Positions 3,236-61,074 of a stretch of DNA of 64,000 nucleotides are shown here, in pieces (the first letter of the stretch is position 1; every line of letters begins with the position of its first letter). Source of the DNA: Eledone cirrhosa. Its lineage: Eukaryota. Made by a program: the position numbers and the translations under genes. The stretch lies in the NCBI GenBank assembly GCA_964016885.1, contig OZ024741.1:320230001-320294000 (forward strand). Reading direction: 5' to 3'. Below the pieces are notes generated by a model, which had not been told where the DNA came from, made no database searches, and worked only from the letters and a program-made list of their open reading frames with translations.

Positions 3236-3302
<67 letters not shown>
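3197..3302. repeat. (GATA)n microsatellite with no Tx1 insertion
   Basis: Visible tetranucleotide repeat; a second unoccupied tract lies at about 8858-8933. Confidence 0.95.
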
Positions 3303-3303
<1 letters not shown>

Positions 3304-8857: not shown

Positions 8858-8934
<77 letters not shown>

Positions 8935-10172: not shown

Positions 10173-11189
10173 TCTTAATTATTCCTCTATATCTTTCTCA
10201 TTTTCCCCTCTCTTGCTTTCTATCTTTCTCTGGAAGAAATCTAGATAAGAATGGACTCCGCCAGGCTTAAAATGCCCAAGAATCGCCATATGTTAATAAG
10301 GCGCCCCTACCACTCTAATGGGCCTTACGGGACCATACATACAATATTACTCCATGTGTGTCTTTCTGTAACTCTTTAAATTTACACACACGAACATGCA
10401 CAAACTTACACACAATGAATTTCTAATCTTACTCATGCAACTATAATAAGAAATTTGCTTTACAATCACAAGTTTCTGAGTTGTAACCATAAATGTGTAC
10501 CTGTAAATAGATATTTCTTCAAAGTCACTCATTCATTTAATCATATATACTATGTGTACATATGTGTTGAACGTTTATGGAGTTATAAAAAGAAAGCTTT
10601 TATTGTTAGGTTAGCAACATATACATCATTGTTCGTAATTGCATCCAAATACGACTCACATCAGATATGGTATACAAACTGTTAACCGCTAAAGTGAACT
10701 TGTATATATTATAAATATTGTAATATAAATATTGTATATAAATATTGTATATATTATAAATATTGTAATAAAGCTATAGTGTATATCCAGACAATTTTTC
10801 TTTTGAATACATTATCAATAACGTTTAGAAAAACGTAGTAGGAAATAGTATCGACAAAGAATGATGAGAGAGGACGAGTAAACCTGAAAAAGAAGATATG
10901 GCAATTGGATAATATGTATAATAGCAATTGGTAGGGGCTATTGTAGATATTCCTGCACGGATGGTTGGAAAAAAACGCAATTCAAGGCAGCAGATTTTGG
11001 TGCACACTACTGAAGGACAAGTAGTCTTGAAAACATTTAAAATGCAATGGCACACTTTCCAAGAATTGCGTATAAAGCAAAGAAAGTGTGTCCCGAGAAA
11101 GAGCATTGATATCATTTTCTTTGTAGTCAACCAATGCACAGCTTACGGTTTTTCAAATGTTATCTATCTGTTTTAACTTAACTACTATG

Positions 11190-13410
11190 AGCAGTGGCGA
11201 CTACATTTTTGCATTAATTTTTAATGCTCACATCAATGTGGAGTCGTGCACATCTGTTAAAAGCATTACATACATCTGCAAATACATCAACAAAGGCGGC
11301 GACATGGCGGTGGTTGGCCTCAGTGATGGCGTAGAATCAAAAGACGAAATTACTCAGTTCATGATGGGAAGATACATTTCGTCCAATATGGCGGCTTGGC
11401 GCATTTTTGGGCTTGAAATTCACCGGTGCTCTCCAGCAGTTGTTAACTTGGATGTTCACTTAGAGAATGGTCAACGCGTTTATTTCACTGAGGAAACCGC
11501 ATCGGCTGCTGCCGAACAGCCACCTGGGACGACGCTTACAGCATGTTTAAAGCTATGTTCTGTCGATACGTTTGCAGTTACCCTTTTTTACGTCGATATA
11601 CCTACCTACTTCACTTGGGCGAACAAAAAATGGCATCGGCGGCGACAAGGGAAAACAGTTGAAAATTGGGTAGGTATCTTCAGAAGTAATGTCATCGGAC
11701 GCGTGTACAATGTTCATCCGAAGCAACAAGAATGCTTTTTCCTGCGAATGTTGCTGCATCAAATCAAAGGGCCCAAGTCATTCGCCGACCTAAGACTTTT
11801 GGATTGCCACATTTGTTCCAGTTATAGGGACGCGTGCGTGAAGCGCGGGCTACTCGAGGAAGATGCCCACCTGAACGTGGCGTTGACGTGGCGTTGACAG
11901 AGGCTGCTGAATGTAAGATGCCTCGAGAAATGATCCTATTGCATAATCCTATTGTTCTGCGGCATAGATGAGCCCCTTAAGCTTTGGGAAACGCATAAGG
12001 ATAACATGTCAGAGGACATCCTCCGTAGGCTACGATCAGAAGATCCAGCGGCTGGCTTTGCTTTCAACGACGCGGTGTACAATGAGGCCCTCATCGACAT
12101 GGACAACCATCTTAAAGCTCTTGGAGTTGGCGGTGTATCTGACTTCGGTTTGCCACAACCTCGAAACACTCACAGTGCTTTAGATGTGGGGTTCATGCGT
12201 GAGTTAAATTACAACATCGACGATATGACACATCAGGTAGCTCAGGACGAACCCAGACTTTTGCATGACCAGAGACGGGCATATGACAGAATTCTCTCCA
12301 GTGTCAATTCAAATGAGGGACGGCTATTTTTCCTGGATGCTCCTGGCGGAACAGGAAAAACTTTTCTCATCAACCGTTTGCTTGCGAAGCTACGAAAAGA
12401 CAAGCGGATTGCTTTAGCAGTCGCCTCCAGTGGTATTGCGGTGACACTGTTACATGGCCGTCGTACGGCACACTCCGCATTCAAATTGCCTTTGGACATT
12501 GCAAAGGAGGGGAATACTACATGTAGAATAGATCGTGGCGACCCTAAAGCACATCTTCTTTCTGAGTGCTGCCTGATCATATGGGACCAGGCTACCATGA
12601 GTCACAAGGCGGCCTTTGAGGCTCTGGATCGAACTCTCAAGGACTTGCGTCGGAACTCACGCGTCATAGGTAGAGCGACATTATTGCTGGCTGACGATTT
12701 CCGACATACTCTTCCTGTTATCACTAGAGGCACTAGAGCTGACGAAGTGAACGCATGCATCAAGTCGTCCTACGTATGGCAGTATGTCCCAAACTACATC
12801 TGACTACCAACATGAGAGTGCATGTGCATGGTGATGCAGACTCCATCGATTTCTCAAAACATCTACTGGAAGTTGGTAATGGAACTACACCTGGAGTGGA
12901 TGAACAACATATCCGTTTGCCTTTTGGGAACTTTGTGTCAAACATTGACGAATTAATGTCATCTGTATTTCCAGACCTTGAATCACGATTCCATGATCAC
13001 ACCTGGCTGAAAGGGAGAGCTATTTTGGCACCACACAATGCTACTGTTGACGTGATGAACCAAAAACTACTCGATCAGATTCCCAGAAATGAAATCTCCT
13101 TCAAGTCGATTGACACCAATAAAAACGCGGACAACGCCGTCATCTATCCAATTGAAATCCTCAATAGTCAACTACCTCCAGGACTTCCTCCTCATGATCT
13201 GAAACTGAAGGTTAGTCTGCCAGTTATGCTGCAGAGAAACCTGGATGCACCAGCACTATGCAACGGAACGCGTTTAATCATAAAAAAAAATAAGGACCCA
13301 AATTCTGGAGACAAACATTTTGAGCGGACCCGCTGCTGGCGTGACCAGGTTAATTACCCCTATGAGCCTTAGTCCCTCTGACGTCCACTATGAATTTACG
13401 CGACGGCGGT
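11190..13410 (+). mobile_element. Decayed Helitron Rep/PIF1-helicase fragment (frameshifted)
   Basis: FNAHINVE...KYINKG, RYISS..AAWRIF, HLENGQ, Walker A DAPGGTGKTFL, VASSGIA, TAHSAFKLP, PPHDLKLK, RNL...CNGTRL spread over three ORFs. An 11-bp duplication near 11875-11898 breaks the frame. Confidence 0.92.
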
Positions 13411-16069: not shown

Positions 16070-16480
16070 AATTGTTTCTACTTTTGGCACAAGGCCAGCA
16101 ATTAGCCAGTGTATTACTGGTACTTTATTTTATCGACCCCATAAGGATGAAAGGCAAAGTTAACCTAATAATAATAATAATGGTTTCTTATATAGGCACA
16201 AGGCCAGTAATTTGGGGGGAGGGGAAAGTCGATTAAATCGACCCCAGTGCGTGACTGGTACTTTATTTTATCGACCTCATAAGGATGAAAGGCAAAGTTA
16301 ACCTAATAATAATAATAATGGTTTCTGATTTAGGTACAAGGCCAAGAATTTGGGGGGATGGGAAGGTCGATTACATTGACACCAGTGCGGTACTGGTACT
16401 TTTTATTTTATCGACCACGAAGGGATAAAAGTCAAAGCTAATCTTGGTGGGATTTGAACTCAGAACGTAAAGAGATGAAA
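16070..16480 (-). mobile_element. Three tandem family-1 SINE segments joined by (AAT)n
   Basis: Core repeated at about 16070, 16180 and 16320 with aataataat junctions. Confidence 0.8.
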
Positions 16481-34019: not shown

Positions 34020-34104
<85 letters not shown>

Positions 34105-34107
34105 CAT

Positions 34108-36884
34108 GTTTCTTTATTAGCCACAGGGGCACAAAAGAAGGGGACAAATACAAAGGGGGAAGTTTGCATACAATAGAAACGTGTAAAATATTATCACAAA
34201 TGCAATTTAAAAATTAATCGATTTTCCCCAATAGGGGGAGACATTACACATGGGTAACACATACCCCCGAAAAAAATGTGCAACCCTTCGCCTCAGGAGC
34301 ACAAAGAGCGGATACTCCCTTCTTCTCCTCCTTCTTTTCTTCTCTCATCTACAGGCTGATATAGAGAGAAGGCCCATTCAGTCGGGCTATTCTCGCCATT
34401 TTCACCCTCCTTTCATAAAACTTGCTGGGGTACAGCACCTCTCTCTCCATCCTGATTCTTCTTCCAAAGTGGTATTTGAAAAAAAGAATAAGTTGTTGGT
34501 CGGAGAGAAAGGTGTCTGACCTCAGCCCTTTCAACCTTGTCCACCATACAACCTCTTTCGCCATAGCTATCACACAAAGGAAAACCGCCTCTCCTTCGTT
34601 TTTGAAGGAGGGTGGCGGTTTGATCATGACAATGGACTCGGTGGTCAACCGGATTGGTCTCACCCGCGACAATAGTCGTTCTACATAGCCCCACAGGTCG
34701 GTAACGCTCGGGAAGTGTATGAATGCGTGCGCGACGGTTTCTTCGTCTCGCACGCACCTCGGACAAATCTTTTTCGAAGGGTCCCTGCCCGGGCGCCCAT
34801 GTCTGTAGAGCTTGTCTCGAACTGGTCGAGCTCCTCGGTAGCACTGCCAGGCCAGGGACTTTTGGAAGTTATCCATCGGTCCCGGGTGGAAGGTCCTACC
34901 GAACAGACTGGCCAGTTCGTCTTCTTCTATGCCCAGAGTTTCACCAAGCGCGTAGTCGCACTTGCTGCGGACCAACCCACTATAGAATGACGAAGTGGAG
35001 TCTTCACTGATCGCCGGGTCCGCCTGCCAGAGGGCTGTGAGCGCCTGAGCACATTCGATGTGCCAATCGCCCATTTTCCTCGGTCTTTGCTTGACCCAAA
35101 CACCTTGGCCGACATCTCGTTGCAGTTCTTCTCCACCTGGAGGTCCGGATCAAACCAGACCCCGAGCAGCTTTACTGGTCCTTCCGTCCAGCGTCCGACG
35201 ACGCCATCGGAAGGCATCGATCTGCCTCTCCACGATCCGACTTTCAAACCGATGGACTTGTCCCGGTTCAGCTTCTCTCCTGTGAACCTTTCGTATTCCT
35301 TCAGTAAGGTGCCGACTTCCTCGATTTACGAGGCGCTCGACACCATTACTGTCACGTCGTCGGCGTAGGCCGACGCCGCCTTCCCCAGTCCCGGTTCCAG
35401 AGGGATGCCCTGCAATAGCTCCAACTTCCGCAGTAGTGGCTCGAGAGTCAATACGTACAGAAGGGAGGATAGAGTGCATCCCTGTCGAATGGATTGCGTG
35501 ATATGGAACAGCTCCGAGAGGTAGCCGTTCACCTTAACCCTTGAGCAGATGTTGCTGTTATACATTGCAGCAATCCAGCCCCTGAACACGGGTCCGAAGC
35601 CTGCCGCCTCGAGCCCCGCATCCAGGTAACGATGGTCAACCCTATCGAAAGCCTTAGACTGATCCAAGTTGATCAGTGCCCCACCGAAGCCGGGTTTACA
35701 CCCTACCCTCTCTATGATGTAACGCATGAGGTGGAGGATGTCGTGTATGGACCTGGTCGGGATTGCGCATGTCTGCGCTTCTCCCACCAGGTTCTCGACG
35801 ACAAGCGCCAGCCTCTTTGCCAATACCTTGGACAAAATCTGTAACTCTGTGTTAAGTCGAGTTATGGGCCGGAAGTTGCCTATGTCATCCCCCTTATTCT
35901 CGTCCTTCCTGACTAGTGTGACTACGCCCCCGGTCACAGAACTGGGAATTCTCCCGTTCTGTTGCCAGTTGCAGTAGACCGCTTCCAGGAAACCGGAGAA
36001 TAAGGCCGGCATTGCTACGTAAAATTCGTAGGGTAGACCGTCGAGACCTGGAGATTTGCGTTTGCCGCATTGGCTCAGCGCGTCCCCTATCTCAGCGGCT
36101 GAAATCGGCTTTTCGCAGAACTTTGCCTCGCTGTCCGAGAGTCGCGGTAGGCCGTCGAGGTATGGACCGAAATCCATAGCCCCCCCCCCCGGCGCGCCGC
36201 CCAGCCCGAACAGCTGAGCAAAGTGCCGCTGAAAGGCCGCACACATCTGCTTCGGCTCACGTATCACGCGTCCGTTTTGGTCCTTCTAAGACCGAATCGT
36301 GGACTTGTTGCCACTTTTTGCCTCCGTCACTCTGGCCCAGCTAACAGCTTTGGCTCCCTCGTTTCCCAGAGCACGTATTTTACTTCTGACAACGCAGCCC
36401 TCATGCTTTGCGTCGAAGAACTGGTCCAAGGCCGTTCTCGTTGCTAGCACGCTGGCTACGTTGCCACTTCTAATTGCCTCTTCTACTTTATCTACCAGTT
36501 CTTTCTCGGTTCTATTTCTATCTAACGCTAATTCTTTACTAAAAACTAACGAGGCTAATCTAACTGACCTCTTGAGAGAGTACCACCATCTGTTGTTGAC
36601 AATGGCCCCTGTCAAGTGTTGTTTAGCTAAAGTGCTAATCCGTCTACTGTAGGCTTTGCATGTCGGTAACGACAAGTTCAGCTTCCAGTAGCCGGGTCCT
36701 TGTCTATGGGTTCTATCAAGGTTGACCATGCAGGTCACTAGTTTGTGATCTGAATAGGCAACCATGAACATTTGTGGACAGCTTAACATGTCCCTATCCT
36801 TATTTCTAACTAGAACCCTATCTAGGTACGATCTAGATGTTCCGCTACGATTAGTCCACGTCCACATTGGCACAGTCGGAAAAT
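34108..36884 (-). mobile_element. Tx1-clade copy 1, 5'-truncated and internally deleted
   Basis: APE C-terminus (SYLDRVLV, SDHKLV), RT (DQSKAFDRV, RQGCTLS, AYADD), CPRC...H remnant; deletion near 35098 relative to copy 7. Confidence 0.93.
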
Positions 36885-36896
36885 ATAGATAGATAT

Positions 36897-37170
36897 GTTT
36901 CTTTATTAGCCACAGGGGCACAAAAGAAGTGACAAATACAAAGGGGGAAGTTTACATACAATAAAAACGTGTAAAATATTATCACAAATGCAATTGAAAA
37001 GTTAATCAATTTTCCCCAATAGGGGGAGACATTTCATATGGATAACACATAACCCCCCCAAAAATGAGCAACCCTCATCTCCAGGAGTACGAAGAGTGAG
37101 TACCCCTTTCCTCTCTTCCTCTTTCCCTCAACCTACAGGCTGATATACAGAGAAGGCCCATCCACTCGGG
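36897..37170 (-). mobile_element. Tx1-clade copy 2 (3' ~275 bp)
   Basis: 3' UTR and ORF2 stop match copy 1; GATA repeats on both sides. Confidence 0.9.
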
Positions 37171-37193
37171 ATAGATAGATAGATAGATAGATA

Positions 37194-37269
37194 TGTATCT
37201 TTATTATCCATAGGGGCACAAAAGAAGGGGACAAATACAAAGGGAGAAGTTTACATACAATAAAAACGT
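37194..37269 (-). mobile_element. Tx1-clade copy 3 (3' ~75 bp)
   Basis: Terminal 3' UTR motif between GATA tracts. Confidence 0.85.
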
Positions 37270-37284
37270 AGATATAGATAGATT

Positions 37285-37334
<50 letters not shown>

Positions 37335-37335
<1 letters not shown>

Positions 37336-40300
37336 TTCTTTATTTACCATAAAGGCATAAAAAGAAGGGACAAAGCAAAGGGGGAGTTTACATAAAACCG
37401 AGTAAAAAGGGTATAAAATGAAAATAATCAAAAACAACCTCAAAAGGGAGGGGACGTGATGGGGGTTGCACCCCCCCCCCGAAAAGTGTGCAATCCTTTG
37501 CCCGGGGAGCACATGGAGAAGTTGCTTCCCTCTCCTTCATTTCTTTACCTACAGGATGGTATACAGAGAAGGCCCATTTACACGAGCCATTCTCGCCACT
37601 ATCACCCACCTTTCATAAAACTGCCTGTGGCCAAGCACCTCTCTCTCCATTCTTATCCTTCTTCCGAAGTGATATCGGAAGAAGTAGACCAGACTTTGGC
37701 CAGAGAGGAAGTTGCCTGACCTCAGACCTTTCAATCGTGTCCACCAAACAACCTCTTTCAACATGGCTATTACGCACAGAAAAACCGCCTTTGTTTCCTT
37801 TGTGAAGAGGGGAGGCGGCTTGATTGTTATCACGGACTCGGCGGTCAATCGAATTGGCGCCACCCGCGACAGCAGTCGTTCGGCGTAGCCCCACAGATCA
37901 GCCACGCCCGGACAGTGCACCAATGCGTGCGCAACGGTTTCTTTGTGACGCACGCATCTAGGGCAAATCTTTTTCGAGGGATCCCTGCCCGGGCGCCCGT
38001 GTCTGTAGAGCTTTTCTCGAACGGGTAGAGCCCCCCGGTAGCACTGCCAGGCCAGTGACTTCTGGAAGTTGTCCATTGGTCCCGGGTCGAAAGTTCTACT
38101 GAACAGGCTAGCCAGTTCGTCCTCTTCCATGTCCAGCGACTCTCCAAGGGTGTCATCGCCCCTGCTAGCCACCAGCTCTCTATAGAATGACGAGGTAGAT
38201 TCTCCACCGATGGCCGGGTCCGCTTGCCAGAGAGCCCTGAGCGCCTGGGCACACTCAGTGTGCCAGTCGCCCAGTTTTCCGGATCTTTGCTTGACCCAGG
38301 ACTGCAGCTCAGTGAGCGAGACGAGTCTCGGAAAGGCTCGTCTCACGAACGGAGCCCACACCGGTTGACCAGTGAGGAATACCTGTAGGTGCCGTAGCCT
38401 TAATGCGTGCCTACGCATCATCAACCACGGCATCCCCAGCCCTCCTTTCGAAGGTTGTTGGCAGTAGATGGATCTTCTCACCATAGGAGAGCGCTTCTTC
38501 CAAAGAAATAGAAAGAGCATGCGTTCCATGGTGGTGAGTGTTTCCTTAGGGCAAGGCACGACAGTCAGGCGGTAGTAGGTGACGGACGCTATGTAAATGT
38601 TCGCCACCTCCGCCCGACCTTTCAGGGACAGCTTACACTTGGCCCATTTCTGGGTTAGTGCAAACACCTTGCTCGTAACCTCGCCCCAGTTCTTTTCCAC
38701 CTGGAGGTCCGGTCCAAACCAGACCCCAAGCAACTTCACCGGGCCCTCCGTCCAGTGTCCGACGACACCGTCGGGAGGCATCGGTCTGCCTCTCCACGTT
38801 CCGAGTTGCAGCCCGATGGATTTTTCCCGGTTCAGTTTCGCTCCTGACAACCTTTCGTACTCCTCCAGTAAGGTACCGATTGCCTCGATCTCCGAATCGG
38901 TCGATACCATTACTGTTACGTCATCGGCGTAGGCCGACACCGCTTTTCTCAATCCTGGTTCTAGGGGGATACCCTGCAACAACTCCAACTTCCTCAGTAA
39001 AGGCTCGAGAGTCAATACGTACAGAAGGGTGGAGAGAGGGCACCCCTGTCGAGTGGATCGTGCGATTTCGAACGGCTTCGAAAGGTAGCCGTTCACCTTG
39101 ATCCTAGAATAGATGTGGTTGCTAAGTAAGGCAGTGATCCAGCCTCTGAAAACAGGACCGAACCCAGCCGCAGCTAGCACCGCATCCAGGTAACCATGGT
39201 CGACCCTATCGAAGGCCTTAGACTGATCCAAGTTGATCAGGGCCCCACCGAAGCCGGGTTTGTTGCAACCCTCTCTATGATGTATCGCATGAGGTGGAGG
39301 TTGTCGTGAATGGACCTGGATGGGATAGCACATGTCTGCGCATCTCCCACCAGGCCACCCACGACAAGCGCCAACCTCTTTGCTAACACCTTGGCCAAAA
39401 TCTTTAACTCTGTGTTTAGCAGGGTTATGGGCCGAAAATTATTTATACTATCCCCCTTGTTCTCGTCCTTCCTCACCAGCGAGACCACGCCCTTGGCTAC
39501 AGAACAAGGAATTCTCCCGTTCTGCTGCCAATTGCAGTAGACTGCTTCGAGGAGTTCGGAGAAGAAGACCGGCATTGTTAAATAAAGTTCGTAAGATATA
39601 CCATCGAGACCTGGAGATTTGCGTCTGCTGCATTGGCTCAGCGCATCCCCGATCTCATCAGCCGAGATTGGTCCCTCGCAGGACTCTGCCTCTGCGCTCG
39701 AGAGACGCGGCAGGCCGCCGAGGTATGGACCGAAATCCACGTCCCCGCCCGGACCCTCGCCTCCTTCGAACAATCGGGCTAAGTGTCTTTGAAAGGCCTC
39801 GGACATCTGCTTAGGCTCCCGGATCACCCGTCCATCCTCGTCTTGCAAAGACCGGATGGTGGATCGATTTCCACTCTTAGCTTCTGTCACGCGGGCCCAG
39901 CCAACGGCTTTTGCCCCCTCATTACCTAGAGCACGTATTTTACTTCGAATGACGCAGCCTTCGTGCTTTGCATCGAAAAACTGGCTCAAGGCCGTCCTCG
40001 ATGCCAGCACTCTGGCCACATCTTCGCTCTTGATTGCCTCTTCTAATTTACCTGTTAATTATTTCTCGTTCCTATTCCTATCGGGAGCTAACATCTTCCT
40101 ATAACTTATTGATTCTGTTCTAATCTCTCTTTTGAGAGATGCCCACCATCGGTTGTTGACGATTGCACCCGTCAACCTCTCCTTAACTAATCTGCTAATC
40201 CGGTTTCTGTAAGTCTCTTTTGCCGGTAAAGACAAATTAAGTTTCCAGTAACTGGGACCTGTCTATGTGTTCTCTCGAGGTTGACTACGCAGGTCACTAA

Positions 40301-42727
40301 TTTGTGATCTGTATAGCCAACCGTGAGCATTTCTGGACAGCTTAATATGTCCCTATCCTTACTTCTAACTAAGAATCTATCTAAGTACGATCTAGATTGA
40401 CCACTGTGGTTCGCCCAAGTCCAGGTTGGCACAGTTAGAAAATCTAGTCGATATCTATCGACCAAGTTAAAACGGTCGAGTAACCCCTTGAGGCTGTTAC
40501 ACCCCCCTCTATTAGGACATGCTCCTGCATAGTCCCAACGTGCATCTAGGATGTCATTCCAGTCCCCCGCTAGAAGCAGGGAACGCGACGTTCCCAGAAA
40601 AGTCTCCAGACGCTGGAAGAAGTCGGGTCGTTCAGCTCCGAAAGGGGAGTAGACGGCGACCAGTCTCAAGGCCGCACCTCCACTACTGCCAACGTCTAGC
40701 ACCAACAAACGACCTTCCGGGTCCGAGTGAACAACCTGTACGGCGAGACCCAGGTGTTTTTCCAGCAGTACGACAACCCACCCCCACCTCCAGGTTGACA
40801 GAGAGATGCGTGCACCTCAAAGTCATCGAAGGTAGGGGCCAGCTGCCGCACGACGCTGATCCGAGTCTCACAGATAACGATTACATTTATACCACGTGAC
40901 CTGAGGTCATTTAGAAGCTTTGCTTGCTTCCAAGTTGAGCCCAGGCCACGTGCATTCAAACATCCTACTCTTAACACATCCATGTGGGCGGCAAAGCCAA
41001 AGGAGAGTGTAGAGACCTACCTTTCTGCTTCCCGGGGTTCGGGTCGCACGATTTCCATGGGGTCGGGGGTGTTGGGTGAAGGGGTGTCTTGTGGTGGTGT
41101 GGGGTCGTCAGTGTGTGGTGGGGTTGGGGTGTTTGGAGTTGTGTTGGGGAGGGGAAGGGGAGGGGGAAAGCTTTTTAGGAGAACGCGGTTTATGGGTTTG
41201 ACAGAGGGTGGTCCTACGTCCTCCTTAAAATCCTTTTTTAGTTTTTGGTAGAGGTTCATTGGGACCTTTATTAATTTTAATTGTGGGTTGTTTTCTGAAA
41301 AAACAAAGTTTACCCCTTCGGTTTGTACCGAAGGGTTATTGTTTATGAGTTCATTTAATTTATTATTGTTTCTGTTGATGTAAGTATAGTGTAATGTCAT
41401 TTTTTCGGATGGTGTGAGTGTTTCGAAGAGGGGAGGGGCAGGTTTGGTTTTGTTTGTTGCTGGAGGGGTGTTTTGTGTTTTGTTGGATTGTGTTGACATT
41501 TGGGTAGGGGCTGTTTGGCCTTGTGTGTTTTGCACATGTTTTCTTTTTTTCCTTTTAATCTGTCTGAAGGACTCCGTTTCTTCCTCCGAATTCTGTCGAG
41601 TATTTGGGCAATGCGTTCAGGCTTCATTTGCACTACAAGTTCTATACCTGTTCCACTGAACGCATTGCCTGTGGTTTTCCCAATGGAAATCACGTTGTCA
41701 TTCGCTGGATCGATGAAGCCAGCTATGAGCCAGCAGTAGTCCATACCTGGCATCATCGCGTCCAGCCATATGCGCTGATATCTTTTACCCATATAAGATG
41801 AATAAAAGGTAAAATTTGTCGAACGAATCGGCGACAAAGCATATTTTTTCGTCGCCGATTCGTTCTTCATAATAATGGCCAGGCTTCCATACAGCCTGTC
41901 TCTTCTTATGAAAGTGGCTTCATTAAATACTTCTCTAAGTACCGCTTTAATTTCTACTCGTGTTGGTTGTTGTGGCATTTTTGAGATGTTGTTGATGGTG
42001 CGGAAAACGACCGTCCGACTTTCAATATCTTTGGTGAGTTCTTGGGGCATTTTTACCGACAAGGCTCCATTTTCCCTTTGAGTTATGAATTGTTTGGCGT
42101 TTTTTATTCTTTGTGCCACATCTGAAATATTTTCAGGTATGTACGTTAAAGATTTTTTTGTTGTTTGCGCAAATGAGATGTTATTGGTGTTGACTTTGTC
42201 GTCTGTTTTGCTTTCTGTTATGATGTTGTTGTTTTCAAATGTTATTTTTGTGTTTGTTGTTTCTTTGTTTGTGGTATTAATATTGTCATGCAATTCTTTC
42301 AAAATTTTTTTGTTGTTGGAATCAATCTGCAGATTTGTGTTTTTGTCGACATTTTTCTCCGCACATTCGTCTGTTTTTATTTTATTTTTTCTTTCCTTCT
42401 CTATGACGTTAGTTGGGAAGGAAGGGGGGGACTAAAGCGTGCGAGCTTACAACTCTTACCGCTGTCCCCCCACCACTATTTTTGTTAGCTTCATTTAACA
42501 TTTCTTCCAGACGATTGAAATTTTATGCAAGAAAATTTTTTTAAAACAGGTTTTCACCCCTGGGAGGGGCGAAAATGAGCTGACCCACCACCTGACAGTT
42601 CAGACGGGGAGTCAAGCTACACAATAGTATCAACATTAAAATTAAACTTACAAAATTTCCGCAATAAATTGGAACAAAACTTCTGCGCGAAGTGAATTAC
42701 GTCTACGCTATCGAACAGACGACAGCT
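37335..42727 (-). mobile_element. Tx1-clade copy 4, near full length, disrupted
   Basis: 5' UTR; ORF1 (~42450-41017; the zinc knuckle seen in copy 6 is missing); ORF2 from 40983 (MDVLRVGCLNARGL, GDWN, YLDRF, TDHKL, AYADD, CPRC..HALVHC) with frameshifts. Confidence 0.93.
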
Positions 42728-42736
42728 AGGATAAAT

Positions 42737-42821
<85 letters not shown>

Positions 42822-42822
<1 letters not shown>

Positions 42823-43005
42823 TTCTATTTATTTGCCACGAGGGCACAAAAGAAGGGGACAAATACACAGGGGGGAGTTTACATAAATGCGAGTAAAGAA
42901 AAAAAGGAATAACAATAAAAATAATATAATAATAAAAAGTCCTCAAAAGGGAGGGGCGTGTTGGGGATCGCACATACCCCCGGAAAGTGTGCAAAAGACT
43001 TTTGA

Positions 43006-43008
<3 letters not shown>
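42822..43008 (-). mobile_element. Tx1-clade copy 5 (3' UTR only, resembling copy 4)
   Basis: Matches 37335-37500; GATA repeats on both sides. Confidence 0.88.
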
Positions 43009-43066
<58 letters not shown>

Positions 43067-43067
<1 letters not shown>

Positions 43068-46000
43068 TTCTTTATTAGCCACAAGGGCACACAAGAAAAG
43101 GGGACAATAGAAAGACATGCCGGGGATTTTACATACAGTCGTGTAAAAAATATAAAAACAAACAATTACAACAATCGAAATCCCCAATAGGGGGTAGGCG
43201 CCACAAATGGGTTGTTTAATACCCCGTCGATAGAACAACCCTCAACTCCAGGAGCGTGTTGTGCAAGTGCTCCTTTCTTCCTGTTGCTCTCTTCTTCAAC
43301 CTACAGGCTTATAAACAGAGAAGGCCCAATCACTCGGGCGATTTTCGCTTCATTCACCCACCTCTCAGTAAATTTACTGGGGTGCAGTGCCTCTCTCTCC
43401 ACACTGATTCTCCTGCTAAAGTGATACTTAAAGAAGGGAATCAATTGTTGTCCGGAGAGAAAGGCATCTGTTCTTAGTCCTCTCAATCTCGTCCACCATA
43501 GCCACCGTACAGAGGAAAACCGCCTCTCTTTCGCTTTTGAAAGAGGCTGGCGGTTTGATCCGTACTATGAACTCGGCAGTCAACTGGATTTGTCCCATAC
43601 GCGACAGCAGTTGTTCTGCATAGTTCCACAGGTCGGTTACGCCCGGACAGTGTACAATTGCGTGCATCTTGGACATGTCCTCTTGGAAGGATCCCTGCCG
43701 GGGCGTCCGTGCCTGTAGATCTTGTCACGACCGGTAGAGCTCCTCGGTAGCACTGCCAGACCAGGGACCTCTGGAAGTTGTTCATAGGTCCCGGGCGGAA
43801 AGTCCTACCAAACAGACTGGTGAGCTCATCGTCTTCGACGCCCAGAGTCTCTCTGTGCACGTCGTCGCTCTTGTAACGTACAATCCCTCTATAGAATGTC
43901 GAAGTGGAGTCTCCACTGATTGCTGCGCCCGCTTGCCAGAGGACTGTGAGCGCCTGGAGCGCATACAATGTGCCAGGCGCCCATCGTTTTCGGTCTTTTC
44001 TTGACCCAGGACTGCAGCTCCGTCAGCGAGATGAGCTGTGGGAAAGCCTGTCTCACAAACGGTTCCCGCACCGGTTGGGGGTCGGTGAGGAATACCTGGA
44101 GATGCCGCAGCCTCAGCGCATGTTTGCGCATCATCAGCCACGGCATTCCCAGCCCTTCGTTGGAAGGGTGCTGACAGCAGACGGATCTCCTCACCAGCGG
44201 AGCCTGCTTCTTCCACAGAAACTGGAAGAGCATGCGTTCCATCTTGGCGAGGTGTTCACGGGGACAAGGCACGACAATCAAGCGGTAGTAGATGACGGAC
44301 GCTATGAAAGTGTTCGCCACCTCCGCTCGACCTTTCAAGGACAGTTTGCACTCTGCCCACTTCTGGGTGAGTGCAAACACCTTGGCCGTGATCTCGTTCC
44401 AGTTTTTTTCCACCTGGAGGTCTGGACCGAACCAGACCCCGAGCAATTTCACCGGTCCGTCCGTCCAACGCCCAATGACGCTGTCGGACGTCATCGGTTT
44501 GCCTCTCCACGTACCGAGTTGCAAACCGACAGACTTGTCCGGGTTTAGTTTTGCTCCCGTCAGCGTTTCGTATTCTTTCAGTAAGTTGCCGATCACCCCG
44601 ATTTCCGAGGTGCTCGACACCATGACCGTCACGTCGTCGGCATAAGCCGACGCTGCTTTGCGCAGTCCCGGTTCTAAAAGCTCCAATTTCCGCAGTAGTG
44701 GCTCTCGAGTCAATACATACAGAACGGAGGAGAGAGGGCATCCCTGGCGAATGGAACGCGTGATTGAAAACGGCTCCGATAGGTAGCCGTTCACCTTGAC
44801 CCTCGAGCAGATGCTGGTGTGCATCGTCTCGATCCATCCTCTGAACACGGGACCGCAACCGGCCGCCTTGAGAACCGCTTCCAAGTATCGATGGTCGACC
44901 CTATCGAATGCCTTAGACTAATCCAAGTTAGATCAGAGCCCCACCGAAGCCAGGTTTACTACTCACCCTCTCTATAATGTATCGCATGAGGTGGAGGTTG
45001 TCGTGTATGGACCTGGTCGGAATTGCACACGTTTGCGCTTTCCCTACCAGGTTCTCGACGACAAGCGCCAACCTCGTCACTAGCACCTTGGCCAAAATCT
45101 TTAACTCTGTGTTGAGCAGCGTTATGGGCCTGAAGTTGTTAATTTCGTCCCCCTTGTTCTCGTCTTTCCTGATCAGCGTTACTACGCCCTTGCCTGCAGA
45201 ACTGGGAATTCTCCCGTTCTGCTGCCAATTGCAGTAGACGGCTTTGAGGACGCCAGAGAACAAGTCCGGCATGCCTATGTAAAACTCGTTGGGTAGACCA
45301 TCTAGACCGGGTGACTTGCGTTTCCCGCAGCGGCCCAGAGCGTCCTGTATCTCAGTGTCCGTGATCGGTCTTTCGCAGAACTCGGCGTCCGTGTTCGAGA
45401 GACGCGGGAGGCCGTCGAGATATGAACTAAAGTCCATTACCTCGTTCGGCTCACCGTCGTTCTGTTCAAACAGTCGCGCAAAGTGCCGCTGAAAGGCCGC
45501 GCACATTTGCTTGGGGTCAAGTAGCACGCGTCCGTTTTGGTCTTTCAAAGACCGAATCGTGGACTTGTTGCCACTTTTAGCCTCCGCCCCTCGGGCCCAG
45601 CTGACAGCTTTCGCTCTTTCGTTTCTTAGAGCACGTGTTTTGCTTCTGACCACGCAGCCTTCGTGTTTCGCATCGAAGAACTGGTCCAGTGCCGTTCTCG
45701 ACGCTAACTCTCTAGCCGCGTTGCCACTTCTAAGTGCCTCCTCTACCTTGGCTACTAGTTCTCTTTCTATTCTGTTTTTCTCCAAGGCTAACTCTCTGCT
45801 ATACCCTATCGATTCTATTCTGATTGCTTTCTTGAGAGAGTACCACCATCTATTGTTAACGATGGCTCCCGTTAACTGTCTCTTGACTAGTCTACTTATC
45901 CGTTCACTGTAAGCTTTACGTGCCGGCAACGACACGTTCAGCTTCCAGTATCCGGGTCCCTGTCTATGTATTCTATCACGGTTGACTAAGCAGACGACTA

Positions 46001-48842
46001 ACTTGTGATCTGAATAGGCAACCATGAGCATTCGTGGACAGCTCAACATCTCCTTGTCCCTTTCTCTAATGAAGAACCTATGTAAATACGATCTAGATGT
46101 CCCACTGCGGTTTGCCCACGTCCACTGTGGTGCAGTCGGGAAATCCAGTCGATACCTATCGGCCAGTTGGAATTGGCCGATTAAAGTTTTGAGGCTGTTG
46201 CACCCCGCTCTACTGGGACATGCTCCCACATAGTCCCATCGTGCATCTAGGATACCATTCCAGTCCCCCACTAAAAGTAAGGAGCGAGACGTTCCCAGAA
46301 AAGACTCTAGACGCTTAAAGAAGTCTGGCCGTGATTGCGATTGCCCGGTCGGGGCATAAACGGCCACCAGTCTGAAGGCTCCACCTCCAATACTGTTCAC
46401 GTCTAGGACTACCAGTCTACCCTTCGGGTCCAAGTGTACTTGCTGTACTTCGACGTCCAGGTTCTTCCGAAACATGACAGCCACTCCACCTCCACCTCCT
46501 GGCTGACAGAGAGATGCGTAGATCTCAAAGTCGTCGAAGATGGGTGTTAGTTGCTGCCTGTTGTGGATCCTGGACTCGGTGATGGCTATCACATCCATAC
46601 TGTGTGACCTAAGGTCGTTTAAAAGTTGGCTCTGTTTCCAGGGCATCCCTAAGCCACGCACATTCACAGTTCCAACTCGTAAACTAGTCATTTTGCTGAA
46701 GAAAATTTGGAGAAAAAGACGAAAGGTGCACTTTCCTTTTTGTTTCCTCGAGATCGGGTTGTTCAATCTCCATTTGGGTGCTGGATGGGGGTTGGGTGGG
46801 GTGGGGAAACATTTTAACAGGACGCGGTTGATGGATTTCTGGCAGGGGTTGCCCACGTCCTGTGAAAATTTATTTTTTAGGTCATTATAGGTTTCCATAG
46901 AAACCCTTATAAGTTTAAGGTGTGGAGACGATTCTGCCTTGACAAAAGTTTTGCCCTCCGTCTCCACCTTGGGGTTTTGGGAGATGACCTCCATCAAACT
47001 CTTCTTGTTTGTGTTGATGTATGCGTATTGTTGTTTGTGTTTTTGTTGTGTTGTTTTAGTTTGTTGTTCGTCCGGGAGTTTTCTTTTTATGGTGGGTGCA
47101 TGTGTTTGTGGTGGTGTTGGTGCTGGTTTTGCTGATAGGGGGATGTTTGACTGTGGTGTTGTTTGTGTTGTTGTTTGTGTCTGTGGTTGTGTGTTGGTGT
47201 TGGTGATTGGAGTTTTGGGGGTTTTGTGGTGTCTCTTTTTTTGTTTTTTAGATCCGCGGTTCTCCCTCTTCTTCACTAAAAGAAGGAGAAGCAGCTTCAT
47301 CCGTCGATAAATAATCATGTGTGTGGGGTAGGGGTATGTTGTGTGGTGGTGGTGTTTCGGTGTGTGTGTTTGTGGTAGTGTTTGATGGAGTGGGATGGAC
47401 TGGGGCTGTGTTCTTCAGGGGTGTTGTCTCTGTTTTTTCTGTTGTTGTTGGTTGAGTGTCTGTTTGTTTTGGTGTGGTTGCTCGTTTCGTCTGTCGTTGT
47501 ACTTGTGGTGGTGGTGGTTGTTTTGGTGTTGGTGTTGGTAATAGTTTTTTTTTAATGATGTTGTTGTTGTGTGTTTGTGGACAAGAGGCTTTTAGGTGTG
47601 CTGTGCTACCACAGCGAAAGCAATGAAATTTTCGTCCTTCTCCCGAAATGTTTATTTTGTTGTTATTATCGATGACGACACTTTCGGGTATTTTGGAGAT
47701 TCTCTCCGGTTTCATTTGCAACAGAATCTCCAAATCTGTACCCGCCCACCTTTGTCGAATAGATTTTCGTATCGAAAGAATCATATCAGTTTCTGGCTCT
47801 ACGAAGCCAGCCAAGATCCACCAGATGTTAATGTTTGGGGGTATGTTTTTTATTTTTATTTTTTGTGTTCTTTTCCCCATATATGTAGGGAAAAAGGTGT
47901 ATGCTTTTGACACCATTGGTGTCACAGAATGTTTTTGGGCGAGTGCATCGCTTTTAAACAGTACGGAAACTCTTTCGTACTGTTTTACTCGCTGGAGAAA
48001 ATCGACATTTGGTAGAATTTCCTTGAAAGTATCTTCTATATATGCTTGGCTAACAAATGTCGGCTTTCTTGTGGAATTTGACACAGTCCTAAAGGTGACT
48101 GATCTGCGAATTGTGTCTTCCTTTATTTCAAGGGGTGAGTTAATTCTAAACCCACCTCTTTCTTCGAAAGTTACACATTTTCTCCCTTGCTGGAGCATAT
48201 CTCTTGCGTTGGAGATATCAAGATATATAAAATCTTGTTTTTTGTTCACTGTTTCAGCGAAAGACGTTTTTTTTTTGTGTGGTGTTGCTGTTGTTGTTGT
48301 TTTTGTTATCGTTGTTAGTCTCGGTGTTGGAAATCTCAGTTCCTTGTCGAGGGGGAACATTATGTGTTGATGTATCTGTAGAGTTGTTGATATCTTTTTC
48401 ATGTGTATGTATGTTAATGGGTTTAATTCCTGTGTTTTCCTGTGTGTTATTGTTATTTTTCTCCGCTTCGACGGTAGAAATTTTAAAATCTTCAAGTGGT
48501 AATATTCTTTCCTCTTTGTTGACAGTCGTATCTATGGCGACGTCCATAGTAGCAGAAGCAGATATAACGTTAATATCTGCCCTTTCTCTCTCTTTTCTCT
48601 ATTAACATTCTCCAGCGTTCTTGTGTTGCTCAAGTTATTTAGTTTGTAAAATCTGATATTTTAAAACAATTTTTAAAGCAAAATTTTCGCCCCAACAGGG
48701 GCGAAAAATGTGATTACCACCCAGCTTACTTTTCAGTTTGGGGGTTAATCTACAAAATGTTATGTTTTTTCAAACAATTAGTTCGGTTTTTTTGTATAGA
48801 GATTAACAAAAAAGCTTACCGGCGATGTTCCACGCGTCAGAC

Positions 48843-48847
<5 letters not shown>
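43067..48847 (-). mobile_element. Tx1-clade copy 6, full length, disrupted
   Basis: ORF1 with zinc knuckle CFRCGSTAHLKASC; ORF2 from about 46690 (MTSLRVGTVNVRGL) with APE, RT and several frameshifts. Confidence 0.95.
47248..48547 (-). pseudogene. Tx1 ORF1 (nucleic-acid-binding protein, CX2CX4HX4C), frameshifted
   Basis: 415-aa ORF plus an overlapping upstream ORF; homologous to 41397-42302. Confidence 0.8.
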
Positions 48848-48877
<30 letters not shown>

Positions 48878-48878
48878 G

Positions 48879-48939
<61 letters not shown>

Positions 48940-48941
48940 TA

Positions 48942-51900
48942 TTTCTTTATTAGCCACAGGGGCACAAAAGAAGGGGACAAATACAAAGGGGGAAGTTTAC
49001 ATACAATAAAAACGTGTAAAATGTTATCACAGATGGAATTTAAAAGTTAGTCGATTTTCCCCAATAGAGGGTGACAGTTTATATGGGTAACACATACCCC
49101 CGAAAAAAATGTGCAACCCTCATCTCCAGGAGTACGAAGAGCTTGTACTCCTTTCCTCTCCTCCTCCTTTTCCTCAATCTACAGGCTGATATAGAGAGAA
49201 GGCCCATTCACTCGGGCCATTCTCGCCACTTTCACCCACCTTTCATAAAACTTGCTGGGGTACAGCACCTCTCTCTCCATCCTGATTCTTCTTCCAAAGT
49301 GGTATTTGAAAAAAAGAATCAGTTGTTGGCCGGAGAGAAAGGTGTCTGACCTCAGCCCTTTCAACCTTGTCCACCATACAACCTCTTTCGCCATAGCTAT
49401 CACACAAAGGAAAACCGCCTCTCCTTCGTTTTTGAAGGAGGGTGGCGGTTTGATCATGACAATGGACTCGGTGGTCAACTGGATTGGTCCCACCCGCGAC
49501 AATAGTCGTTCTACATATCCCCACAGGTCAGTGACGCCCGGGCAGTGTATGAATGCGTGCGCGACGGTTTCTTCGTCTCGCACGCACCTCGGACAGATCT
49601 TTTTTGCAGGGTCCCTGCCCGGGCGCCCATGTCTGTAGAGCTTGTCTCGAACTGGTAGAGCTCCTCGGTAGCACTGCCAGGCCAGGGACTTTTGGAAGTT
49701 GTCCATCTGTCCCGGGCGGAAGGTCCTACCGAACAGACTGGCCAGTTCATCTTCCTCCACGCCCAGAGTTTCACCGAGCGCGTCGTCGCACTTGCTGCGG
49801 ACCAACCCTCTATAGAATGACGAAGTGGAGTCTCCACTGATCGCCGGGTCCGCCTGCCAGAGGGCTGTGAGCGCCTGAGCACATTCGATGTGCCAGTCGC
49901 CCATTTTCCTCGGTCTCTGCTTGACCCAGGACTGCAGCTCGGTCAGTGAGACGAGTCGTGGGAAGGCTCGCCTCACGAACGGGGCCCACACCGGTTGTCC
50001 GGTGAGGAATACGTAGAGATGCCGCAGCCTGAGCGCGTGTTTGCGCATCGTCAACCACGGCATCCCCAGCCCTCCGTTAGAAGGGTGTTGGCAGCAGATG
50101 GATCTTCTTACCAAAGGAGCCCGCCTCTTCCAAAGGAATCGGAAGAGGGCGCGCTCCATTTTGGCGAGCGTTTTGGCTGGACAAGGCACGACGGTCAAGC
50201 GGTAGTAGATGGCGGACGCTATAAAAGTGTTCGCCACCTCCGCTCGACCTTTCAAGGATAGTTTGCACTCGGCCCACTTCTGGGTGAGTGCAAACACCTT
50301 GGCCGTCACTTCGTTCCAGTTCTTCTCCACCTGGAGGTCCGGACCAAACCAGACCCCGAGCAGCTTTACCGGTCCTTCCGTCCAGCGTCCGACGACGCCA
50401 TCGGAAGGCATCGGTCTGCCTCTCCACGATCCGAGTTGCAAACCGATGGACTTGTCCCGGTTCAGCTTCGCTCCTGTGAGACTTTCGTATTCCTTTAGTA
50501 AGGTGCCGACTTTCTCGATTTGCGAGGCGCTCGACACCATTACTGTCACGTCGTCGGCGTAGGCCGACGCCGCTTTCCGCAGTCCCGGTTCCAGAGGGAT
50601 GCCCTGAAATAGCTCCAGCTTCCGCAGTAGTGGCTCGAGAGTCAGTACGTACAGAAGGGAGGAGAGAGGGCATCCCTGTCGAATGGATCGCGTAATATGG
50701 AACGGCTCCGAGAGGTAACCGTTCACCTTGACCCTTGAGCAGATGTTGCTGTTGTGCATTGCAGCAATCCAGCCCCTGAACACGGGTCCGAAGCCTGCCG
50801 CCTCGAGCACCGCATCGAGGTAACGATGGTCAACCCTATCGAAAGCCTTAGACTGATCCAAGTTGATCAGTGCCCCACCGAAGCCGGGTTTACACCCTAC
50901 CCTCTCTATGATGTATCGCATGAGGTGGAGGTTGTCGTGTATGGACCTGGTCGGGATCGCGCATGTCTGCGCTTCTCCCACCAGGTTCTCGACGACAAGC
51001 GCCAGCCTCTTTGCCAACACCTTGGCCAAAATCTGTAACTCTGTGTTTAGCAGAGTTATGGGCCGGAAGTTGCCTATGTCATCCCCCTTATTCTCGTCCT
51101 TCCTGATTAGTGTGACCACGCCCCCGGTTACAGAATTGGGAATTCTCCCGTTCTGTTGCCAGTTGCAGTAGACCGCTTCCAGGAGACCGGAGAATAAGTC
51201 CGGCATTGCTACGTAAAATTCGTAGGGTAGACCGTCGAGACCTGGAGATTTGCGTTTGCCGCATTGGCTCAGCGCGTCCCCTATCTCAGTGGCTGAAATC
51301 GGCTTTTCGCAGAACTTCGCCTCGCTGTCCGAGAGTCGCGGTAGGCCGTCGAGGTATGGACCGAAATCCATAGCCTCTCCCGGCGCGCCGCTCCCCCCGA
51401 ACAGCCGAGCAAAGTGCCGCTGAAAAGCCGCACACATCTGCTTCGGCTCACGTATCACGCGTCCGTTTTGGTCCTTCAAAGACCGAATCGTGGACTTGTT
51501 GCCACTTTTTGCCTCCGTCACTCGGGCCCAGCTAACAGCTTTGGCTCCCTCGTTTCCCAGAGCACGTATTTTGCTTCTGACAACGCAGCCCTCGTGCTTT
51601 GCGTCGAAGAACTGGTCCAAGGCCGTTCTCGTTGCTAGCACGCTGGCTACGTTGCCACTTCTAATAGCCTCTTCTACTTTATCTACCAGTTCCTTCTCGG
51701 TTCTATTTCTATCTAACGCTAATTCTTTACTAAAAACTATCGAGTCTAATCTAACTGCCCTCTTGAGAGAGTACCACCATCTGTTGTTGACAATGGCCCC
51801 TGTCAAGTGCTGTTTAACTAAAGTGCTAATCCGTCTACTGTAGGCTTTGCTTGTCGGTAACGACAAGTTCAGCTTCCAGTAGCCGGGTCCTTGTCTATGG

Positions 51901-52120
51901 GTTCTATCAAGGTTGGCCATGCAGGTCACTAGTTTGTGATCTGAATAGGCAACCATGAACATTTGTGGACAGCTTAACATGTCCCTATCCTTATTTCTAA
52001 CTAGAACCCTATCTAGGTACGATCTAGATGTTCCGCTACGATTACTCCACGTCCACAGTGGCGCAGTCGGAAAATCTAGTCGATATCTATCGGCCAGGTC
52101 AAATCGGTCGATTAACTGTT
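48942..52120 (-). mobile_element. Tx1-clade copy 7, 5'-truncated, young
   Basis: Close relative of copy 1; GATA tracts at 48848-48941 and 52121-52147. Confidence 0.95.
49179..52120 (-). CDS. Uninterrupted Tx1 ORF2 frame (APE C-terminal half, RT, CCHC finger); true N-terminus missing
   Basis: The 1008-aa ORF begins with about 29 residues from flank/microsatellite; contains DQSKAFDRVDH, RQGCPLS, AYADDV, CPRC...HAFIHC. Confidence 0.85.
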
Positions 52121-52329
52121 TATAGATAGATAGATAGATAGATAGATTCAGGTTATATCGGCCAAAATCAGTGTTGATAACAAAGGAAATATGTACTACA
52201 TACAATCTTTAATGTATGGAGTGTATATATCTTTAAAACGGGCAAGTTTGTTTGTGGAAGAACAGATGTCATCCCATGCATACTAGCCCCCCCCCCCCCT
52301 CTTCAGGCCATCGTCGTTGTTCGAGCAAA

Positions 52330-59311: not shown

Positions 59312-60065
59312 TACCACTGAGATGAAAGAATGGTATTTAACTAATGTATTGGTACGCGATGGGACCCACCCACAGCCCCGGCGGACAGAATGGAGAAGGG
59401 GTTTCCTCGGAGGACGGCAAGGGAGACGCGCTGGAAAAGCCACTCCAACTCGCGGGGCACACACCTCCGGCTGGCCAGCTCAGCGCCTATGGTGGTGAGT
59501 AAGGAGGTAGCCCTGGGGCCGAGGACACCAGAAGTTTCCACTGCCAGGGGAACGACCGCAAACCTGTCGGAGAGCGACCGGTATTTGAGGAGTTTGGCCC
59601 CCTCAGCCCGACGCGCAGCAGAACCTGGGTCAGTCGCAGACTGAAGCTGGTTGCTGCTGCAGAAGTGTCGGTGCAAGTGGCATCCCAGACGAGGGGTTTG
59701 CCACCGCGGAACGGGAAGATGGTCATGCCATCTGGCCTTTTGCCGTCCCCTCGATCCAGCCCCACCGGCTCGAGCTGGGAAGGGAAGCCTGCAGCGTCCA
59801 AGCCATACTTAATGACCTCGTTGAGGGCAGTATGGCGTGGAATGCGGCCGGCACTGTAGCGACAGGAAAACGGGTGGAGGCCGAGCCTCAGGGAAACGCC
59901 GATTTGCAGGCTATGGTTGTCTAGCTGCGTGCCAGTGGAGAAGGAGGTCAGAGCATAGAGCCAGGCACCACTGTGGGGTTTGGAGGCCGCACGAAAACAA
60001 GCAAGGTGGTGCTGGTCGAGCTGGCGCGTGAGCCTGCACTGGATATCGGTACCGGCATCCAGGAC
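59312..60065 (-). mobile_element. CRE-like non-LTR retrotransposon, C-terminal RLE portion and 3' end
   Basis: [48 protein letters not shown]; most of the zinc finger is deleted. Confidence 0.85.
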
Positions 60066-61074
60066 TCCAGGCACCTCATTGTCAAGCTTGACATGAGGAA
60101 TGCCTTTAACTCTTTACGCCGGGATCATCTGCTCGAGGCTTGCCTCAGCCGAGCCCCATCTCCCTACCCGCTGGCCTACCTGTCATATGGAGCCCCGAGC
60201 ATGCTCCTAACTGCTGATACGGCCATACACTCGGCTACTGGGGTCCAACAGGGCGACCCTTTGGGACCCCTCCTGTTCGCCCTTGGTATTGACCACATCG
60301 CCCGGAGTATCACGGCCCCTCTCAACGTTTGGTATCTGGATGATGCTACGTTGGGCGGGCTCGTACGGACGGTCTGCCAAGACCTTCAATCGGTGATTCC
60401 TGTCCTGGCGGTAATCGGCCTCCCGGTCAACTCGGCCAAGTCGGAGGTGGTGAACGTCAGCCTCGATGCCGCGAGCTTTGCAGCCTCCGTCTTGGACGTG
60501 CGGTCCGTTCTCCGCCAGGTTCAGGTGACCCCCAAAGAGGATGTCCTCATCCTCGGGTCACCGATCCACCCGCTGGCCATCCGCTCCACCATCAGGTTCA
60601 GGCTTCAACAGCTCCAGACTCTCACGAGCCGACTGGGCTTGATTGACGGCCACCCAGCTCTCTTTCTGCTGAGGAACTGCTTCGCCATGCTGAAGCTCTA
60701 TACACTCCGCAGCGCTCCATGCTACAGCCAGACATCTCTCCTCGCTGACCTCGATACTTGTATCCGAGCAGCAGCCGAGGGGATATAGAACGTCAAGTTT
60801 GACGACATAGGGTGGTAACAGGCCACTTTACCGCTCAGGTATCGCGGCCTAGGCCTCCGGTCTCTGATCTCACTAGCTTTGCTGGCGTATCTTTCGTCGG
60901 TAACCTCGTGCCGCGTCCTCGTCAGCAGGGTTCTTCAAAACACAACAGAACCCTCTGTGTTCAGAGAACGTGAGGTCGCCTGTGTGACGTGGGACCGGCT
61001 GCGACTTAGCCCAGTAGACGTCCCTCCTCCTTCTCCCCCTCGCGTACCAATACCATTCTTTCATCTCAGTGGTA
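60066..61074 (+). mobile_element. CRE-like retrotransposon, RT portion in the opposite orientation
   Basis: [41 protein letters not shown]. Confidence 0.88.

Follow-up and report, generated by a model that had tools for sequence, protein, structure and literature searches.

Separate insertions of probable Tx1-clade LINEs into (GATA)n microsatellites of Eledone cirrhosa, and close relatives at other repeat targets

Long interspersed elements (LINEs) with an apurinic/apyrimidinic-type endonuclease (APE) include families that prefer microsatellites as insertion sites. In the Tx1 clade, the teleost families Kibi and Koshi target (TC)n and (TTC)n, respectively, and crocodilian Tx1 elements target (TTCC)n/(TTTC)n (available portions of PMC4494074 and PMC3812793). 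According to the available portion of PMC3812793, how APE-type LINEs come to target microsatellites is not well understood. In this study, an array of seven LINE copies separated by (GATA)n was analyzed in a 64,000-nucleotide stretch of the E. cirrhosa genome (contig OZ024741.1, positions 320,230,001 to 320,294,000; G000:C2:320230001-320294000), hereafter the window, and its relatives were sought in the whole assembly (3.0 Gb, 1796 contigs).

The array spans positions 34108-52120 of the window and comprises seven copies (E1 to E7), all on the minus strand, as revealed by self-comparison and reading of the sequence. The six internal junctions contain, in order, 2, 6, 12, 20, 14 and 7+15 perfect GATA units. 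An earlier note on this DNA had described seven same-orientation insertions at 34108-52147, with different 5' truncations, (GATA)n at every internal junction and GATA at the outer 5' flank, and each of these observations is borne out, with seven distinct 5' ends and five GATA units at 52121-52146. One statement needed refinement. The "at least three" diverged subfamilies are in fact four, since comparison with natural genomic copies placed E1, E2, E3 and E7 in subfamily A, E4 in B, E6 in C and E5 in a fourth. The 3' ends, given there approximately as (TCTA)n, read AATAAA-GAAA on the element strand, then two variable bases, then (TATC)n. Pairwise identity among the copies is 74-96%, and their ages range from 0.35% to 6-10% divergence. 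The array is thus composed of seven separate insertions.

Internal junctions of such an array may be read as either target or tail, and therefore both ends of other genomic copies were read. In the window, the outer 5' flank is the only junction not explicable as a tail, because non-family DNA lies beyond it. The sample consisted of 97 copies outside the window, i.e. all 39 matches of a search with the A-type 3' end (best 40 of 653 candidates scored) and 29 of 39 matches each for the C-type and B-type 5' ends (across the searches, the best 40 of 653-1605 candidates were scored). Of the 97 copies, 85 have at least two in-phase GATA units no more than 25 nt away from the 5' junction (A 32/39, B 26/29, C 27/29), and none has a reverse-strand repeat there (0/97). 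Two in-phase units occur at only 0.2% of 200,000 positions picked at random from 600 kb of genome sequence sampled at even spacing, and a chance origin of the junctions is excluded. These counts uphold the strand-specific (TATC)n targeting proposed in the earlier note. In the available portion of PMC4494074, microsatellite-specific elements are recognized by one repeat at >20% of flanks, a level that the present family far exceeds (85/97); here the repeat is found at both ends and in a fixed orientation (reversed 0/97).

Forty-three of the copies have a non-family 5' neighbour (L008, one of the individual genomic copies, which bear L numbers, was moved since a family copy adjoins it), and 34 of them keep GATA; the automatic neighbour assignment may be wrong for one further copy of the B set. 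The 5' repeat of six of the seven full-length A copies carries the same imperfection; the 5' flanks of full-length copies were thus in part handed down from the parent copy, and counting them exaggerates targeting. Truncated copies with non-family 5' neighbours are free of this problem, and among these at least two GATA units were present in 12 of 18 and AGATA in 14 of 18. A lack of GATA at the 5' junction of most solitary copies, which the earlier note had named as a refutation, is thus not observed. Among the exceptions are one inverted copy (L005) and two insertions at (TA)n sites (L015, L023).

Target-site duplications of ~5-20 bp end in AGATA where unique bases reveal them (L017, L022, L027, L108, L138, L144 and L160, scored by eye), and therefore the first nick was likely made on the GATA strand, at a site that pre-existed the insertion. 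The minimal site can be one AGATA. Two independent A-type insertions, L017 and L250, lie at the same single AGATA within another repeat. A poly(A) remnant (run of 8 T) was found in 0 of 217 distinct 3' ends, though AATAAA lies 4-6 nt from the junction. At their other end, A-type copies are recurrently truncated at positions 375-390 (L003, L005, L010, L104 and L109), where short matches to the GATA repeat occur; judging by these matches, this cluster is likely a microhomology hot spot.

The pattern extends throughout the genome. An 18-letter motif of the 3' end occurs 42,437 times (reversed control, 12), and in 18,163 of these occurrences AGATA lies within 9 nt. There are 34,768 perfect (GATA)5+ runs (209,071 minus 174,303; interrupted tracts are counted more than once in these totals), and in 6,328 of them (18%) just two bases separate the end of the run from a family 3' end (control, 6). 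A family 3' end is the 5' neighbour of 54 of the 97 copies, which means that head-to-tail stacks are the norm and that the window array is long but typical. That 54/97 exceeds 18% could be due to repeated use of tracts already occupied, to selection or to best-match sampling; target saturation as the cause of stacking is unsupported, since family 3' ends adjoin only that 18% of the long perfect runs. In the window, two further (GATA)n tracts of considerable length (3236-3303 and 8861-8932; 17 and 18 units, same strand) have no adjoining family copy and represent unoccupied targets. Elsewhere in the genome, tandem copies with identical truncation or flanks were seen (L024, L104, L105, L227-L230, L062/L063), and local duplication thus contributes to the length of some arrays.

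Individual positions within the array are as follows, with copies on the minus and GATA tracts on the plus strand. The outer 3' flank (34099..34107) is a single GATA unit plus GACA, preceded by (CA)n(TA)n(GA)n. E1 (34108..36886, 2.8 kb) is a 5'-truncated, older A-type LINE, 95.9% identical to the intact A copy L091, with an internal deletion of ~363 bp at 35097 and 2 stops. After the (GATA)2 junction (36887..36896) comes E2 (36897..37169), an A-type 3' fragment of 273 bp (90% to L091), then (GATA)6 (37170..37193) and E3 (37194..37270), another A-type 3' fragment of ~76 bp (96%). The (GATA)12 junction (37271..37334) has a degenerate start and is followed by E4 (37335..42729), a full-length B-type copy (97% to L132), whose ORF1 (ORF, open reading frame) retains its CCHC knuckle and has a ~423-bp deletion, and whose ORF2 (40983-37549; APE, reverse transcriptase (RT) and zf-RVT) is in four pieces with one stop. 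The (GATA)20 junction (42730..42821) precedes E5 (42822..43009), a 188-bp 3' fragment of the fourth subfamily (93% to L289), and (GATA)14 (43010..43066) precedes E6 (43067..48845), a full-length C-type copy (94% to L120) with a CCHC knuckle in a broken ORF1 frame (~48530-46890) and a frameshift near 44930 in ORF2 (46691-43304). The last internal junction, (GATA)7-GA-(GATA)15 (48846..48939), adjoins E7 (48940..52120), the youngest copy, 99.65% identical to L091; it is truncated within the APE, and residues 167-1145 of its ORF2 are open (52118-49182). The outer 5' flank, (GATA)5 at 52121..52146, is followed by non-family DNA.

Full-length copies of these elements are ~5.8 kb long and encode an ORF1 protein with one CCHC knuckle (a single CX2CX4HX4C in A, B and C types) and an ORF2 protein of 1145 residues, which is intact in the natural copies L091 and L096. 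Pfam matches of the window copies are Exo_endo_phos (APE), RVT_1 (RT) and zf-RVT. ORF2 shows the L1-group organization, with an N-terminal APE, RT and a C-terminal Cys-rich domain, and among solved structures human L1 ORF2p is the closest (E 5e-51; R2 at 3e-22). Marks of target-primed reverse transcription are also present, i.e. 5' truncation in 32 of 39 A copies, target-site duplications and 5' inversion in L005. The ORF1 resembles the RRM/zf-CCHC type rather than Transposase_22, which is suggestive of Tx1 but not exclusive to this clade. No Pfam match was obtained for the ORF1 pieces of the window, and look-alikes in the atlas are zf-CCHC and RRM/ZCCHC3-type proteins (score 0.89-0.92, a lead only). 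CCHC/RRM-type ORF1s are consistent with Tx1 according to the available portion of PMC5203782. For the RT region, Argonauta hians (67%) and Acanthosepion pharaonis (47%) provide the closest named homologues among the matches listed, which makes an octopod host likely, and named Tx1 proteins are absent among the 120 homologues listed. The elements probably belong to Tx1, judging by domain make-up. Seven full-length A copies are mutually 98.6-99.6% alike, and the A family is therefore young. In the APE of E6, His replaces the conserved Asp of the SYLDR motif found in intact copies, and it aligns with the D of the L1 KIDH motif. We take this Asp to be catalytic. Because of the His, the E6 endonuclease is a poor candidate for an assay, and the intact L091 and L096 are better ones.

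Relatives with other targets were found in sixty evenly spaced 10-kb pieces of the genome, which contained five GATA-flanked and seven (TAA)n-flanked 3' ends with the same 3' motif (the respective tracts number 5 and 48 in 600 kb). The TAA type has intact ORF2s of 1139 residues, 69% identical to A. Its full-length 5' ends abut (AAT)n in 30/30 cases (30 of 40 matches; six are tandem duplicates in two clusters), and they are identical over 296 bp at 40/40 scored places, hence very young. The number of TAA-type 3' ends is put at ~15,000 by doubling the reverse count of a pattern search; its forward count is inflated by overlapping matches. TAA-type families (L191, L209, L211-L240, L276-L284) are also stacked head to tail. 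The 3' flanks of L277, L278, L279, L281, L243, L251, L252 and L269 recurrently contain the same non-family sequence ending in (AAT)n; probably a different LINE ends there, and the TAA-type copies use its tail as a target.

A third type (L271-L275, L290-L319; 326 ends, mostly near the ends of large contigs) is inserted at one base of a 72-bp satellite in 30/30 copies (first 30 by position; six in one cluster), 29 of which exceed 1.5 kb. In full-length copies, ~5 bp of the satellite unit are missing from the 5' junction, and the single truncated copy has a 9-bp duplication. This type has an intact ORF2, with 87% identity to that of A. After identical flanks were collapsed, 191 of 217 distinct 3' ends could be typed (26 untyped). 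GATA-type ends comprised 118 at GATA, 1 at a TAA-like sequence and 8 at neither; TAA-type ends 38 at TAA, 0 at GATA and 1 at neither; and all satellite-type ends (25/25) lay at the satellite. There is no clear target crossover among these typed ends. A maximum-likelihood tree was built from 20 ORF2 rows (LG+G4), omitting winE6, winE7 and further rows that were partial or long. In it, the satellite family is nested within the GATA group (97/98, 98/100), and a GATA-only clade is rejected (approximately unbiased (AU) test, p=0.0065). The TAA families and the Argonauta protein fall outside the GATA group, with weak support among themselves.

Comparison of the endonucleases revealed 62-81% identity between those of the three targets, the satellite-type APE having 81% identity to its closest GATA relative. 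The four GATA subfamilies are only 67-79% alike in APE, yet they have one target. Five APE columns that hardly vary among nine GATA copies are altered in the satellite family and in no other. Four of them, at residues 109-122, adjoin the loop that aligns with L1 residues 117-120, and the stretch itself aligns with L1 residues ~115-120. In L1, Asn118 contacts the DNA major groove (available portion of PMC8565326). In the TAA types, 14 of the columns that hardly vary within the GATA families are different.

We consider it rather probable that the seven insertions arose by target-primed reverse transcription after a nick at AGATA, with site choice led mainly by the endonuclease and RNA pairing serving as a filter. 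The endonuclease is predicted to nick the GATA strand directly after AGATA. The freed 3' end would then pair with UAUCU repeats on the RNA, which may stem from read-through past AATAAA into the flank of the parent copy; this pairing would fix the phase and leave the poly(A) uncopied. As each insertion leaves GATA of the same orientation on both sides, subsequent insertions become stacked head to tail, whichever GATA subfamily they belong to. A daughter family would have altered residues beside the DNA-contacting loop and shifted to the 72-bp satellite, with a sister group on (TAA)n. A broader proposal is put forward only tentatively: one octopod lineage may have split into coexisting young (GATA)n, (TAA)n and 72-bp-satellite families, switching from GATA to the satellite through about five APE changes next to the major-groove loop plus a swapped short RNA-borne target copy, which would make it a nearly programmable two-part system, and it may have built or split at least a fifth of the long GATA tracts.

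Several points weigh against this endonuclease-led mechanism. The copies examined were the best matches of each search, which creates a bias to young copies, and the shared imperfection of the A-type 5' repeats has already been mentioned. Six of the 18 truncated solitary copies lack two GATA units, and copies in (TA)n or with inversions occur among them (L005, L015, L023; also L143 and L258). AGATAG was found 349 times in 600 kb, and a five-base site is therefore insufficient to explain the bias. The tree comes from a single model with rows translated across frameshifts. Finally, the beta-hairpin loop, a known L1 specificity element (available portion of PMC1950540), is identical in A and the satellite family, which fits an RNA-led choice equally well.

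Such an RNA-led choice, in which a loosely specific endonuclease nicks and the site is selected mainly through pairing of the nicked end with a 10-25 nt piece of the parent's flank on the RNA, is a less likely competitor. Besides the identical hairpin, it would account for the lack of poly(A) in the 217 ends, the in-phase junctions, the inherited 5' flank of six of seven full-length A copies and the uniform 5' junction of full-length satellite copies. It sits less well with the cluster of APE changes peculiar to the satellite family at columns almost invariant in GATA families, with the 14 differing columns of the TAA types, and with the long retention of one target by four diverged GATA subfamilies, which show no crossover into the ~tenfold commoner (TAA)n. 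Were it true, one misplaced parent copy would suffice for a target switch. That GATA is only a tail made by the element, with copies gathering passively at existing tails or breaks or surviving selection there, is improbable. The frequency of upstream family 3' ends (54/97), above that for long GATA runs, is in its favour, as is L022, with 21 units 3' of a duplication containing just 13 unique bases, which suggests occasional tail growth. However, the 5'-junction counts and the clean truncated set (12/18) largely reject it, the duplications show that AGATA preceded insertion, and the gain in the majority of these copies was 0-2 units, with none at all in some (TA)n insertions (L143). A large obligatory self-seeded tail is likewise unsupported, L022 being the sole exception among the informative copies. 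The least credible origin, which we regard as very nearly negligible, is tandem or segmental duplication between flanking GATA repeats. Tandem pairs with identical truncation do exist elsewhere (L024, L104, L105; L227-L230), but the segmental duplication against which the earlier note had advised checking is refuted for the window array by its distinct 5' ends, four subfamilies, identities and spread of ages.

Other features of the window were also identified. A PIF1-type helicase in three pieces (11127-13372, plus strand; Pfam PIF1 E 6e-55, Pif1_2B_dom) is probably a Helitron remnant. A G+C-rich RT fragment (59340-61000, plus strand; RVT_1 E 9e-10) has no GATA flank and is unrelated to the array; its motifs presumably indicate a CRE-type LINE. 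Short tandem pieces at 5934-6237 and 16116-16441 (periods 165 and 138) look like part of an abundant SINE (short interspersed element), and the same repeat is present at the 5' flank of the TAA-type L217.

These observations have practical consequences. In genomes of this kind, microsatellites of the GATA and TAA types frequently represent flanks of LINEs. Markers designed at them risk multi-locus primers, and annotation pipelines that discard simple repeats overlook the pattern. As intact, recently copied ORF2s with three targets and a short list of candidate residues are available, the endonuclease-led and RNA-led choices are directly testable, and the system bears on site-specific gene insertion.

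In Octopus vulgaris, 80 L1-Tx1 consensus families, 13 of them recently active, have been reported (available portion of PMC13282606), and relatives of the present elements are probably in that library. The available portion of this paper does not describe an insertion preference of L1-Tx1, and the word "target" is absent from its main text; in the available portions of PMC8967140 and PMC9115989, which deal with cephalopod repeats, L1-Tx1 is listed without targets. No GATA-targeting LINE was found in the literature searched, a scope outside which lie Repbase/Dfam and the full target list of PMC4494074 (including an unnamed satellite), which may bear on novelty. Within that literature, (GATA)n is a new target for a known microsatellite-targeting strategy.

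Among elements of other clades, Dong (TAA)n, Waldo (ACAY)n, Mino (AC)n and Togen (TG)n have microsatellite targets, none of them GATA in the available portions of PMC3812793 and PMC4640811; Dong resembles the sister group described here in its TAA target. SART1 and TRAS1 (R1 clade), which insert into telomeric repeats, share the oriented insertion in a short tandem repeat, and for them a target switch by endonuclease swap has been reported and RNA-target annealing proposed (available portion of PMC7265360). They differ from the present elements in clade and in that SART1 copies, according to the same portion, end in poly(A), whereas these copies are without it and their target is interstitial. 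Kibi, Koshi and the crocodilian Tx1 elements, compared by target and not by kinship, are likewise APE-type L1-group LINEs preferring a microsatellite. Unlike Kibi and Koshi proper, with their (TC)n or (TTC)n, the families described here occupy (GATA)n, which is not pyrimidine/purine-only, (TAA)n or a 72-bp satellite, and the GATA families have ~18,000 3' ends and form mixed-subfamily stacks. Tx1L in Tx1D, Tx1-Mar and Tx1-9_AMi have a target site inside another repeat (available portion of PMC4494074), as does the daughter family at one base of the 72-bp repeat (30/30), but the latter is nested in a microsatellite-targeting group and retains 81% APE identity to its closest GATA relative. What the present analysis adds to these systems is a genome-wide test of GATA targeting and a nested target switch among intact close relatives.

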